Assembly (NCBI GenBank): GCA_035563695.1
Contig: DATMUX010000750.1
Coordinates: forward strand, 1 to 28,626
Direction of reading: 5' to 3'
Source of the DNA: Acidimicrobiia bacterium
GTDB lineage: Bacteria > Actinomycetota > Acidimicrobiia > IMCC26256 > PALSA-610
Length of the DNA: 28,626 nucleotides
The translations under genes and the position numbers were made by a program. The notes beneath the pieces were generated by a model. It was given only the letters and a program-made list of their open reading frames with translations. It was not told where the DNA came from and ran no database searches. This document shows positions 9,364 through 12,027 of the stretch, piece after piece (position 1 is the first letter of the stretch; each line of letters begins with the position of its first letter).

Positions 9364-10992
9364 TCATCCCGAGCCCGACGCGGCGTCGACCTGCCAGACG
9401 GCGATGAAGGGTGATCGAAGGACGGGCGTGCCGACAGGTGGCGGTGGCGAGCTCCGTGACACGCTGCGCACCTCGAAGGTGGGCCCGTCGACGGGCTCCG
9501 AGGTGGAGCCCGAGTAGAGATCGATCCCGGGCACGAGGCGAAAGCGGTAACCGTCCTTGGCCAGAGCGAGCGCCACTGCGCCGGCGTCGAGGCCGCTCGC
9601 GCGGTCGCGCACCCCGAACACGGTGTCCCGGCTGGCGACCGCCTGCTCGATGGCGTGCGCGGCGAGGCGGGCCGAGGGTGAATCCCCGAAGGACACCGAC
9701 CGGCCCCGCAGCACGACCGTGTGCGACGCCGCGAGCGTGACGCCGATCAACACGGCGGCGCTGACCCATCCGGCCGCGACCGCGCGCCGCCCGGATCCCT
9801 CCCCCGCCGCGGCGAGGACCGCGAGCGCGCCGGCGCCGACGAGCGCCGGGATCCCGATCGTCTCGAGCCAACGAAGGAGATACGGAAGCAGCGGACCGAC
9901 GATCCGCGTCGTTGCCAGCTCCGCGACCAACAACCCGACCGGTGTCATCAGGCACAACACCGCCAGAAAACGGTTGCGTCGCCACCCGGCGATCGCTCCC
10001 CCGATGCCCAACACGACGAAGAGAGCGACCCACGCGTAACGCGTGTGGAGGTCGGCGACGCCGCGCGCCCGGCCGAGCGGCACCGCGGTCGCGACATCGC
10101 TGACCTGTACTGCCGCGTCGTGCAGCGAATGCGATGTCGCGCCGGCATCTCGAGGCGGGCTCGCGTAGAACCGGGCGATCTGCGTCAGGTTGCCGTCGTG
10201 ATTCGTCACCTGCTGATAGAGCGGCGGTAGCCACACGAGGAAGAGGAGCGCGGCGCCCGCGATCACGACGACGCGTTCCCGACGTGCGAAGCGAGGACGC
10301 CAGCCGCGCCCACCAAGGAACGCGACGACGGCGATCGCGACCGCGACCGCGCAGAGCGGAGCAGTACCGATGTGCGTCTGCACGAGATACGACGCCACAA
10401 GCCACGTTCCGACCAGCGCCGGAACGGACCCCGCTGCACTCGCGGCGACGCAGACGAACATCAGCAGCGCCGGCATCGCAAGCAGCGAAGGATTCCACGG
10501 ACTCGCGAGTTGATCGAAATGCAACGCGTGCACGATGAGCACGATCGCGATCACGGAAACGCGCGCCGCGAGCTCGCCGGCCATTCGACGCACGAGGAGC
10601 ACGATCAGCACCGCGCAACCCCAATTCAGGAACCAGCTCGACAGGAACAGGCTGCGCGATGCCTCGCCCGACAACCAATACGCCGGTGCCATCACCGCGA
10701 ACAGCAGCGATCCCGGATGGTGCCAGCCGAACCGCGAGTACGGTCCGAGCGCCGTACCGCCTCGCACCATCTGGCGCACCGCCAGCTCGATGAAGGCGAC
10801 GTCGCCGCCCGATGTGAACGGCCATCCGAGCGCACGAACCAGCTTGACGACGCCGAGCAGGCCGATCAGCCCGACCGCGAACAGCGAGAGCGGCAACGCC
10901 TCGATGCGACGGCCGACGCGGCCACGCCCGACCACGATCGGCTCCGAGGATCCCAAGTCCGCGGGTGGGGCCGCGTCGACGGCGTGCGTCAC
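9364..10992 (-). CDS. polytopic membrane protein, putative GT-C-fold glycosyltransferase
   Basis: Many hydrophobic segments. The first loop carries GGDVAFIEL...GPYSRFGWHHPG, followed by SPWNP and QTHIG, and there is a soluble C-terminal domain. GTGA overlap with the upstream ORF. Confidence 0.7.
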   Translation of the reverse strand: MTHAVDAAPPADLGSSEPIVVGRGRVGRRIEALPLSLFAVGLIGLLGVVKLVRALGWPFTSGGDVAFIELAVRQMVRGGTALGPYSRFGWHHPGSLLFAVMAPAYWLSGEASRSLFLSSWFLNWGCAVLIVLLVRRMAGELAARVSVIAIVLIVHALHFDQLASPWNPSLLAMPALLMFVCVAASAAGSVPALVGTWLVASYLVQTHIGTAPLCAVAVAIAVVAFLGGRGWRPRFARRERVVVIAGAALLFLVWLPPLYQQVTNHDGNLTQIARFYASPPRDAGATSHSLHDAAVQVSDVATAVPLGRARGVADLHTRYAWVALFVVLGIGGAIAGWRRNRFLAVLCLMTPVGLLVAELATTRIVGPLLPYLLRWLETIGIPALVGAGALAVLAAAGEGSGRRAVAAGWVSAAVLIGVTLAASHTVVLRGRSVSFGDSPSARLAAHAIEQAVASRDTVFGVRDRASGLDAGAVALALAKDGYRFRLVPGIDLYSGSTSEPVDGPTFEVRSVSRSSPPPPVGTPVLRSPFIAVWQVDAASGSG

Positions 10993-11219
10993 CCGTTCGA
11001 CGCCTCGACCGCCCGCGCCGTCCGATGCGGGCGATACCCGCGATTGCGCGCCTCGGCGAGCGATTGCGGAGCGATGGCCAGGAACGCCTCGGCCGACAGC
11101 AGGTCGTCGACCGCGGCAGTCACGGACGGATCGTGCCCGTAGAGGTCGAGGTCGTACACGATCATCGAGCGCTTGTCTCCGACGTAGCGAAAGTGCTCGA
11201 AGCGGATCGGGCGACTCAC
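10989..11219 (-). CDS. small hypothetical protein (76 aa)
   Basis: Start reassigned to GTG at 11219 (VSRPIRFEHFRYVGDKRSMIVYDLD...AEARNRGYRP). It has its own -10, and the longer ORF start at 11285 abuts an upstream terminator. Confidence 0.75.
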   Translation of the reverse strand: MSRPIRFEHFRYVGDKRSMIVYDLDLYGHDPSVTAAVDDLLSAEAFLAIAPQSLAEARNRGYRPHRTARAVEASNG

Positions 11220-11232: not shown

Positions 11233-11286
11233 CCGGCAGCCGCCGGAGCACCGGGCAACCGTTCACGTTCCGGGTCGCGGTGCACG

Positions 11287-11323
11287 AAAAGGAGATCGGG
11301 GGGCGCCTGAGCACCCCCCGATC
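11287..11323 (-). terminator. intrinsic terminator
   Basis: Minus strand GATCGGGGGGTGC-TCAG-GCGCCCCCCGATC forms a 13-bp stem with one U-G pair, followed by TCCTTTT. Confidence 0.8.
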
Positions 11324-11436
11324 ATTTCGACTGATTCGGACCCGTCGCGCCGTCACGTCGGTGGGACCATTTCCGACAGCTACGACGGTGGTGCGGCGGT
11401 TGACCTCCGCCAGGTGGTCCAGTCGAGTTCGACGGC

Positions 11437-11478
11437 CTAGCGGCCGCGCACCTCCGGGGTCCCAGGTTTATCGTGCAT
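11437..11478 (-). CDS. putative 13-aa small ORF MHDKPGTPEVRGR
   Basis: ATG...TAG, 9 nt downstream of GGAGGTG within a very strong Shine-Dalgarno-like tract. Translation is unproven. Confidence 0.35.
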   Translation of the reverse strand: MHDKPGTPEVRGR

Positions 11479-11511
11479 GTGCTGGACCACCTCCCTTCTC
11501 CGGTACCTACC

Positions 11512-11520
11512 GTTGTAGCA
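11512..11520 (-). promoter_or_regulatory. candidate extended -10 for the small RNA
   Basis: TGC-TACAAC on the minus strand. A 7-nt spacer places +1 at A11504. There is no recognisable -35, and the last base deviates from TAnnnT. Confidence 0.35.
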
Positions 11521-11568: not shown

Positions 11569-12027
11569 TCAGGACCCGAGCGGCGGGCGCGGCTCGTCGG
11601 GGCCCTGCGCTCTCGGCCCCACGGCACCGATCGCGCGGAGATAGGCCAGCTGCGTCTCGACGACGGCTCGCACCTGCTCGGGATCGTACGCCTCACCGGT
11701 CTCACCCGATCGAGCGCAGACATAGTCGACGGTCTCGGCCCCACCGACGACGACGTCACCGGGGGGATTCGCCGACGAGCCGTTGCCCGTAACGCCCTTG
11801 CGGGCGAAGAACTCGAGCTGGAACGCGAGAATCCGCCGCACGTCGTCCGGAGTCAGGGTGGCGGCGACCGCGTCGGGAACGTGCTCGACGACCCACTCGT
11901 AGGCCTCTTCGGGATCGAACACGGGAGGAGGCGGCTCCGCGGCCATCCGCGCCGCCTCCCGCATCACGAGCCAGGCCGCGATCGCACAGGCCACACCGAC
12001 CACCACCAACGCCGTCACCAGGAGCAC
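11569..12027 (-). CDS. hypothetical protein with an N-terminal transmembrane anchor
   Basis: 152 aa. A hydrophobic N-terminus (LLVTALVVVGVACAIAAWLV) precedes an acidic soluble domain. GC-rich coding-like codon use. Confidence 0.75.
   Translation of the reverse strand: MLLVTALVVVGVACAIAAWLVMREAARMAAEPPPPVFDPEEAYEWVVEHVPDAVAATLTPDDVRRILAFQLEFFARKGVTGNGSSANPPGDVVVGGAETVDYVCARSGETGEAYDPEQVRAVVETQLAYLRAIGAVGPRAQGPDEPRPPLGS

Follow-up and report, generated by a model that had tools for sequence, protein, structure and literature searches.

Results

A probable small-mRNA gene on the minus strand of the window

The window analysed here comprises positions 1-28,626 (forward strand) of contig DATMUX010000750.1 from an Acidimicrobiia bacterium (assembly GCA_035563695.1), a length of 28,626 nucleotides (nt). 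On its minus strand, between genes for a 152-amino-acid (aa) and a 76-aa protein, lies an independent RNA gene of ~218 nt, probably encoding a small mRNA and extending from ~11504 to ~11287. The element is real and exceeds chance expectation, and comparison with its relatives identifies it as a divergent Acidimicrobiia member of the actinobacterial RNA family Ms_IGR-5 (Rfam RF02471). Its core is a Shine-Dalgarno (SD) sequence of maximal length that opens a short open reading frame (ORF). The original prediction for this locus, made from the sequence alone, described a structured RNA in which an internal mimic of the 16S ribosomal RNA (rRNA) tail locks the SD, and all the motifs that it listed were found in place when the sequence was re-read. 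The features, from promoter to terminator, are as follows.

11520-11512, minus strand: extended -10-like box TGCTACAAC, with hexamer TACAAC ending 7 nt upstream of the predicted start
11504, minus strand: predicted transcription start, a conserved A ahead of helix H1
11500-11503, minus strand: 5' strand of H1, CCGG, pairing with 11457-11454
11481-11499, minus strand: maximal SD (purine tract plus GGAGGUGGUCCAGC), a 19-nt complement of the 16S 3' tail with two G-U pairs
11492-11482, minus strand: the part of the SD, AGGUGGUCCAG, that is a perfect complement of CUGGACCACCU over 11 base pairs (bp)
11437-11478, minus strand: mini-ORF, ATG (11478-11476), 12 further codons and TAG (11439-11437), encoding MHDKPGTPEVRGR
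11458-11463, minus strand: segment B, GGGACC, in codons 6-7, the 5' arm of a pseudoknot, pairing with loop D at 11368-11363
11454-11457, minus strand: 3' strand of H1, CCGG, inside codons 7-9, with compensatory versions in relatives
11447-11452, minus strand: 5' strand of H3, GGUGCG, in codons 9-11, pairing with 11395-11390
11433-11446, minus strand: hairpin CGGCC-GCUA-GGCCG, with the TAG stop in its loop
11412-11422, minus strand: the 16S-tail mimic CUGGACCACCU (segment C), complementary to SD positions 11492-11482
11395-11411, minus strand: hairpin H5, GGCGG-AGGUCAA-CCGCC, whose loop is the counterpart of a conserved GAAUCCAA motif beside the 3' strand of H3
11390-11395, minus strand: 3' strand of H3, CGCACC, pairing with 11447-11452
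11342-11388, minus strand: 3' domain, an outer helix (11388-11383/11347-11342) around hairpin 11377-11357, with loop GGUCCC at 11368-11363
11285-11323, minus strand: intrinsic terminator, a 13-bp GC-rich stem (11323-11294) with a TCAG loop and the tail UCUCCUUUU

The TGNTACAA version of the -10 box is kept across the window's order, and TANNNT-like hexamers stand at an equal distance from the start in other classes; a strict sigma-70 scan of the element returned no promoter match. The A-C ahead of H1 is conserved in all members, and the Rfam consensus of Ms_IGR-5 begins at the same A. Promoter-like boxes and terminators are retained among the relatives, and in several other classes the 3' domain doubles as the terminator.

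Membership of the Ms_IGR-5 family

Compared directly with Rfam, the element gave no match at gathering score and none meaningful at E<=10; ROSE, CC2171 and ALIL, which appeared only at E 0.65-7.7, were rejected as its identity. RF02471 itself was found neither genome-wide at E<=10 nor in any of the seven searched genomes of the window's family (0/7). The connection was made through R1, a covariance model built from 70 non-redundant relatives of the element. When 20 phylum-level R1 matches were scanned against Rfam, seven of them (L207, L208, L203, L204, L196, L198 and L193, with R1 E-values of 3.6e-9 to 1.5e-12) scored 175.9-48.1 bits on RF02471, whose gathering score is 45 bits, and most of the others matched it below threshold, with coordinates and strand always those of R1. 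Among Acidimicrobiia, RF02471 matched sub-threshold at the R1 coordinates in 41 of 151 genomes, and one match, at 50.9 bits, lay above the cut-off. These transitive matches through R1 intermediates indicate that the window RNA is a divergent member of RF02471. The original prediction had named a confident match to a known Rfam family as the outcome that would remove its novelty; although the window itself scores nothing against Rfam, the homology to RF02471 through intermediates makes that novelty fall.

The window RNA and Ms_IGR-5 share the same order of a 5' A-C, a 4-nt helix strand and a purine tract followed by GGAGGUGGUCC, a short frame ending in GAGGUG, 9 nt and a stop, and a terminal long helix capped by a GUCC-loop hairpin (L207 and L208 were aligned to the Rfam consensus and then compared with the window). 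Both are stand-alone, single-copy RNAs. Unlike Ms_IGR-5, the window RNA carries its 16S-tail mimic and its terminator as separate elements, together with an additional hairpin at the stop codon. In the Rfam consensus structure, the partner of the SD is the H3 strand, and H1 and the pseudoknot B:D are missing. The window's order and family lie beyond the reach of the Rfam model.

Ms_IGR-5 is an actinobacterial small RNA (sRNA) whose discovery in Mycobacterium smegmatis is credited to Li et al. (RNA 2013). Its start in that species was later re-mapped to a +1A carrying a nicotinamide adenine dinucleotide (NAD) cap (bioRxiv 10.1101/2021.12.14.472595), it was seen again under cold stress (PMC10454040), and it is expressed in Streptomyces as a single-copy sRNA (PMC8780764, PMC8079986). 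It is therefore a validated, functionally uncharacterised sRNA family, now extended to the window RNA. In the literature searched, the ORF, the full 16S complement and the pseudoknot went unmentioned for Ms_IGR-5, and nothing specific came up when the literature was searched for the core sequence or for SD-mimic sRNAs of Actinobacteria. The maximal SD, the phylum-wide ORF of 12-15 codons, helices H1 and H3 and the pairing of the ORF with the 3' loop appear to be undescribed in that literature.

Fold and covariation

With a folding energy of -119.8 kcal/mol (z = -4.85), the 236-nt stretch is more stable than any of 200 shuffles. Covariation among homologues supports the predicted structure in large part: a nested nine-helix model on the order-level alignment leaves 93.5% of cells paired, with 18 pairs changed on both sides, a result reached by 0/500 shuffles. 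All six pairs of the outer helix 11388-11383/11347-11342, put forward in the original prediction as an alternative pairing, are changed on both sides, as are all five of the hairpin stem 11377-11373/11361-11357; the terminator stem also covaries, so the inner stem and the GC-rich terminator of that prediction are retained. The outer stem 11388-11384/11354-11350, which it had drawn as well, received no covariation support.

Two further helices and a pseudoknot connect the ORF with the rest of the molecule. H1 consists of four pairs between the nucleotides just before the purine tract and the four just before AGGUG in the ORF, and at least 11 different compensatory 4-bp versions of it occur phylum-wide, including CCGG:CCGG, CCAG:CUGG, CCGA:UCGG, CGCG:CGCG, CGAG:CUCG, CACG:CGUG, CGUG:CACG, CACA:UGUG, CGAC:GUCG and CAGG:CCUG. 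H3 (GGUGnnn with nnnCACC) shows G-C to A-U changes within the order, and in other classes its strands, read by eye, are rewritten yet complementary. At the level of comparative sequence analysis, the outer helix, the 11377/11357 hairpin stem, the terminator, H1 and H3 are proven by compensatory change. In the pseudoknot B:D, codons 6-7 contribute an nGACC whose partner is the GGUCn of the 3' hairpin loop, in versions such as GGGACC:GGUCCC, AGACC:GGUCU, CGACC:GGUCG, GUGACC:GGUCAC and AGGACU:GGUCCU. Its two variable flanking positions are paired in 74/75 and 58/75 members as G-C, A-U, U-A or C-G, which none of 2000 permutations reaches; the D loops in this statistic were taken from the model alignment, and an unbiased hairpin finder often chose terminators in their place, giving a noisy statistic. 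B:D is new relative to both the Rfam consensus and the original prediction, which likewise did not include H1 around the initiation region, H3 or the selection on the mini-ORF described below.

The remaining local structures are less uniform. The stop-codon hairpin 11446-11433 is present in the window's order without covariation, and other inserts replace it in other classes. The H5 stem is conserved, and its outer pair shows a G-C to A-U change (partly by eye). A RAAUCCAA-type motif (GAAUCCAA; window 11400-11406), just 5' of the 3' strand of H3, is kept from Acidimicrobiia to the Rfam consensus, where it reads GAAUUCC; an intramolecular partner was sought and none was found, and the motif may be a tertiary contact or a binding site. 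A local GGUCC:GGACC hairpin (A:B), chosen by RNAalifold on the order alignment and built into model R1, was rejected, as the phylum-wide variation of segment B is matched by the D loop and the SD is invariant; A:B is at best an alternative state. For GACUG, on the 5' flank of segment C, and the conserved CAGUC ahead of the terminator, visual inspection of a few sequences suggested a compensatory long-range pairing, which was absent from the helix-scan results. We also considered 6S/Ms1-like RNAs, tmRNA-like RNAs, T-box or tRNA mimics and an RF2-type frameshift sensor, and set them aside: there is no structural resemblance, and the identity of the stop codon varies.

Selection on the mini-ORF

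We examined the ORF in 79 phylum-wide members. An in-frame ATG, GTG, TTG or CTG stands 5-12 nt after GGAGG in all 79, against 16/79 and 1/79 in the other two frames (in the window, the ATG lies 11 nt after GGAGG). Counted from the GAG of the GAGGUG box, the stop follows at exactly 15 nt in 78 of the 79 by script and in the last by eye, and is TAG in 60, TGA in 14 and TAA in 4. Length varies from 12 to 15 codons through indels that are only multiples of 3 nt; among 115 members from the order, 11 length variants were seen, each of them a 3-nt insertion. This conservation of start, stop and frame in the aligned sequences is the mark of selection on the ORF.

The peptide MHDKPGTPEVRGR is hydrophilic, in agreement with the original view that the ORF does not encode a hydrophobic toxin. 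Across classes it is conserved only at T, E and V, each of them fixed by B:D, H1 or H3, and the residues at H1 positions (L/P/S/R/C) and H3 positions (R/H/A/V/T/S/P/M) follow the compensatory changes of the helices. Synonymous sites are invariant within the order. Since the peptide varies while the frame is kept, selection would act on the translation of the frame and not on its product.

These counts bear on two other explanations. In the first, the RNA is a purely non-coding, trans-acting sRNA whose mini-ORF is never translated and whose SD-like tract and mimic are structural or bind targets, for example by blocking SDs on other mRNAs with a C-rich or anti-SD-like seed. Rfam and the literature do treat Ms_IGR-5 as an sRNA, the RNA helices account for all the conserved codons, non-AUG starts are common (CUG in 9-11 of the 79 members), and the GAAUCCAA-type motif is conserved with no intramolecular partner found. 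An untranslated RNA would, however, have no reason to keep a frame, so the in-frame NUG at SD distance in every member, the use of UAG, UGA and UAA alike at one fixed position and the indels in threes make this explanation rather unlikely. The D loop, moreover, covaries with B and so is not a conserved seed for pairing in trans.

In the second, the locus is an ordinary small-protein gene, with the 13-residue peptide as effector and a fold that merely limits its synthesis. Retention of the ORF throughout the phylum would suit such a gene, as would an MH(D/E/K) N-terminus that recurs in several classes and the precedent of the clade-conserved rreB/rreR peptides discussed below. We nevertheless consider it doubtful: the three residues conserved across classes are each fixed by B:D, H1 or H3, the other positions track the H1 and H3 changes, the length varies from 12 to 15 codons, and synonymous sites show no variation within the order.

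The Shine-Dalgarno sequence and its internal mimic

The 16S 3' end reads GGCTGGATCACCTCCTTTCT in same-order relatives, and in relatives with assembled rRNA the 16S terminates in GGCUGGAUCACCUCCUUUCU. Positions 11499-11481 form with this tail a 19-nt complement that includes two G-U pairs, at a duplex energy of -35.5 kcal/mol, and reading the tail in these relatives also substantiates the earlier description of 11422-11412 as its mimic. GGAGGUGGUCC is near-invariant, and the purines upstream of it vary slightly (GAAAGG/GAAGGG/GAGAGG). In the window, the mimic pairs with the SD over 11 perfect bp at -24.7 kcal/mol. The helix is 90% pair-compatible over 70 relatives, with only pair-preserving one-sided C/U and A/G changes within the order; as the SD strand does not vary, compensatory changes are absent. 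SD-complementary segments of the form GRCCRCC(U) recur across the phylum, in some cases in a multiloop strand, in others in a hairpin loop or merged with the 3' strand of H3, and the SD:mimic helix reaches at least 8 bp in 53 of 79 members across the phylum.

The placement of the mimic differs among lineages. In L203 (300-520) and in the f57-type loci L189, L192 and L195 it lies in a hairpin loop of its own or forms part of a hairpin, and the L203 hairpin CCGGAGG-ACCA-CCUCCGG is an SD:anti-SD-like stem. Judged from these loci, the lock appears to have been rebuilt in different ways among classes. In the window, the terminator tail AUCUCCUUUUCG (11285-11300, minus strand) resembles the extreme 3' end of 16S rRNA. 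Folding predictions join the tail UCUCCUUUU to the purine tract in the 5' half of the SD at -14.3 kcal/mol, in the nearest relatives only (L001-L005), and according to this folding model two separate tail mimics could cover the whole SD in the window's clade.

Distribution and genomic neighbours

The element is single copy in the window's own genome. A blastn search found it in 48 of 61 relatives, among them most families of the window's order, and across most of that order it is present as one gene per genome. With a degenerate core pattern of 22 nt, the search retrieved at least 119 contigs from public genomes, 116 of 119 being true members by nhmmer; among the matches listed, nearly all were titled Acidimicrobiia or uncultured Actinomycetes/Actinomycetota metagenome-assembled genomes (MAGs). 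R1 matched 73 of 151 Acidimicrobiia genomes and 62 of 151 Actinomycetota genomes, nearly always once per genome; the latter count includes four unpublished genomes (G190, G234, G272 and G301), each matched, whose sequences were not used. In one Acidimicrobiia family, f27, none of the 35 sampled genomes of ~1.1 Mb was matched, against 15/15 in another family, and the RNA may have been lost in streamlined lineages. Three contigs of MAGs labelled Burkholderiales or Bifidobacteriaceae (L060, L081 and L036) carry a typical Acidimicrobiia-type copy (nhmmer E 1e-39 to 1e-48) and are probably mis-binned contigs or mislabelled bins.

Both flanking genes are co-oriented with the RNA. The upstream 152-aa gene (11569-12027, minus strand), which encodes an N-terminal membrane helix, accompanies it at 29 of 29 order-level loci with 57-80% identity, and the downstream 76-aa gene (10989-11219, minus strand) at 21 of 29 with 47-71% identity. 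Neither protein belongs to a Pfam or NCBIfam family, and the protein atlas gave only unannotated actinobacterial clusters, so the neighbours offer no functional hint. This synteny is confined to the window's order and the nearest orders; elsewhere, unrelated enzymes and regulators flank the RNA. Because synteny is lost while the RNA persists class- and phylum-wide, the element is an independent gene and not an untranslated region (UTR), which upholds the originally predicted self-contained RNA of ~220 nt with its own -10 box and terminator.

The same observations make it very improbable that the element is a cis-acting leader or attenuator of the 76-aa gene or a 3' UTR element of the 152-aa gene. 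Such a role could be read from the co-oriented flanks at these order-level loci and from the layout of SD, short ORF, structure and terminator, which resembles ribosome-mediated attenuators. The neighbours nevertheless change in other orders and classes while the RNA stays, the terminator stem covaries freely with no competing antiterminator partner found, the terminator is the 3' domain itself in several classes, and the downstream gene has, by eye, its own TANNNT box 7 nt before its GTG.

At three of five distant loci examined (L168, L173 and L177), a gene for a pyridoxal-phosphate-dependent Cys/Met-type enzyme (PALP or Cys_Met_Meta_PP) adjoins the RNA. Cys codons occur in the variable N-terminal part of the mini-ORF in several lineages (e.g. 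..DGCCGT.., ..ECFCRT..). A tie between the RNA and cysteine supply is possible.

Presence in RNA libraries

Words from the conserved core occur in eleven RNA-labelled public runs. Four soil RNA libraries, each from a different study, contain contigs of relatives, 57-244 nt long, that cover the positions corresponding to 11341-11498, and in three of the four runs no contig extends past ~11494-11496 on the 5' side. The library contigs are compatible with a discrete, abundant transcript and are not proof of one.

Discussion

We consider it somewhat more likely than not that the element, the Acidimicrobiia form of Ms_IGR-5, is an rreB-like small mRNA that docks the 30S subunit, with translation gated by its own fold. 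The sequences show the homology, architecture, H1, H3, B:D and ORF selection documented above; 30S invasion, translation-coupled unfolding and the role of the RNA are inferred. The fold would bury the whole initiation region: the 3' two-thirds of the SD are paired with segment C, codons 6-7 with the 3' loop and codons 9-11 in H3, with the stop right behind H3. By analogy with rreB, a free 30S subunit would catch the 5' purine tract of the SD through the extreme 3' end of its 16S tail. Strand invasion would then displace the internal mimic, whose 11 bp with the SD amount to -24.7 kcal/mol compared with -35.5 kcal/mol for the 19 bp formed with the 16S tail, and the docking would be very tight. 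Occasional, rare translation of the ORF would unzip B:D, H1 and H3 and remodel the RNA, which in its unzipped state would probably be exposed to decay. The conserved property would be ribosome binding and transit, and not the peptide. Reporting or buffering of free 30S subunits is one possibility for its role.

The closest parallel that we found is rreB of Bradyrhizobium, a stand-alone mRNA of 165 nt with a 17-nt SD and a GTG-started small ORF (sORF) of 14 codons (Hahn et al., RNA Biol 2016/17, PMC5711450). It co-sediments with 30S, its SD and start codon keep its translation weak, and its decay depends on the start codon, loss of which stabilises the RNA; the part of its SD predicted to be unpaired and available as a seed is confined to the 5' nucleotides, its overexpression gave no phenotype, and the rreB/rreR peptides are conserved within their clades (PMC5711450). 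The window RNA resembles the rreB/rreR RNAs as a stand-alone RNA from promoter to terminator (~165-220 nt there, ~218 nt with a -10 box and terminator here), in a 16-19-nt complementarity to the 16S 3' end just upstream of the sORF (19 nt here), in an sORF of 13-18 codons, often with a non-AUG start (13 codons here), in an SD of which only the 5' part is predicted free, and in an unconserved genomic context. The rre RNAs belong to alpha-proteobacteria and the window RNA to Actinomycetota, and the likeness described here is one of architecture. The complementarity of the rre RNAs reaches the first base of their GTG, whereas the window's ATG lies 2 nt beyond the end of the complementarity at 11481; their peptides are clade-conserved, whereas that of the window RNA is dictated by RNA helices; and neither a pseudoknot nor an internal 16S-tail mimic has been described for rreB. 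By this analogy, the window RNA would follow the logic of rreB with a more elaborate lock.

A second parallel is STAB-SD, the 5' stabiliser of the cry3A mRNA of Bacillus thuringiensis, reportedly described by Agaisse and Lereclus in 1996. As there, a very strong SD lies close to the 5' end, and its main effect may be 30S binding over productive translation. STAB-SD, however, sits in the leader of a long mRNA and does not open a conserved ORF, whereas the window SD opens a conserved mini-ORF in a structured stand-alone RNA. The locks of type I toxin mRNAs (hok, aapA1; PMC6733600) also use intramolecular anti-SD pairing, which would give the ribosome access only during transcription or after activation. 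Although the SD sequestration and 5'/3' fold-back in the window's clade resemble these locks, a type I toxin-like mRNA, locked by 5'-3' pairing and SD sequestration, is scarcely credible here, as the peptide is hydrophilic, of 13 residues and unconserved, the gene is single-copy, vertically inherited and phylum-wide with a housekeeping-like distribution, and the RNA comes with neither toxin nor antisense RNA, the plus strand, on which the original prediction had advised looking for an antisense transcript, showing no promoter- or terminator-like sites.

Several observations weigh against the proposal of a self-gated, 30S-docking mRNA. The element is from an Acidimicrobiia bacterium known from sequence, and its transcript ends are predicted. 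The RNA-library contigs show neither strand nor transcript ends, DNA carry-over is possible, and those of run X3 partly continue into the promoter and the upstream gene. The lock that the original prediction placed between mimic and SD stands as complementarity in most lineages and fails as a universal feature: the helix is 6 bp or shorter in about a fifth of sampled members (e.g. L182-L186, L113 and L129), and the pairing, which is without compensatory support, is weak or absent in some clades. In several classes, the GGACCACC segment is also the 3' strand of H3, and its conservation there may owe nothing to the SD. Shuffle tests of the SD:mimic pairing are individually weak for single sequences in this GC-rich RNA (median p 0.07), and in the predicted fold of the window RNA the 3' tail of the molecule occupies even the proposed toehold. 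UUG or CUG is the start codon of many members, and translation may be very rare. By analogy with rreB, whose overexpression was silent, a sponge role is doubtful. We conclude that the SD:mimic lock is likely real but not universal, and that the interpretation in the original prediction is partly supported.

A bolder form of the proposal, which we hold only tentatively and think unlikely, is that it acts as a natural toehold switch triggered by ribosomal RNA itself, reporting the abundance of free 30S subunits or the integrity of the 16S 3' end. The 16S tail of a free, mature 30S subunit would seed on the purine tract and invade the SD:mimic helix, and docking would free the internal copy of the 16S tail and the pseudoknot partners. 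The readout would be the conformation and lifetime of the RNA, perhaps together with the released anti-SD copy as a potential mask for SDs on other mRNAs. If this were true, Ms_IGR-5 of Actinomycetota and the alpha-proteobacterial rre RNAs would belong, by convergence or by kinship, to one widespread class of ribosome-sensing mini-mRNAs.

For the family, the results mean that Ms_IGR-5, listed for more than 10 years and uncharacterised, extends far beyond its Rfam model, as a single-copy gene in Acidimicrobiia and other classes of Actinomycetota, and an improved covariance model would let annotation recover the missing members. Its constant core is a maximal SD that opens a mini-ORF, as opposed to a generic non-coding sRNA, and its initiation region lies within a pseudoknotted fold supported by covariation. 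The element thereby links the family to the equally enigmatic rreB/rreR RNAs and supplies structural hypotheses (H1, H3, B:D and SD:mimic) for an RNA that is amenable to study in M. smegmatis or Streptomyces.

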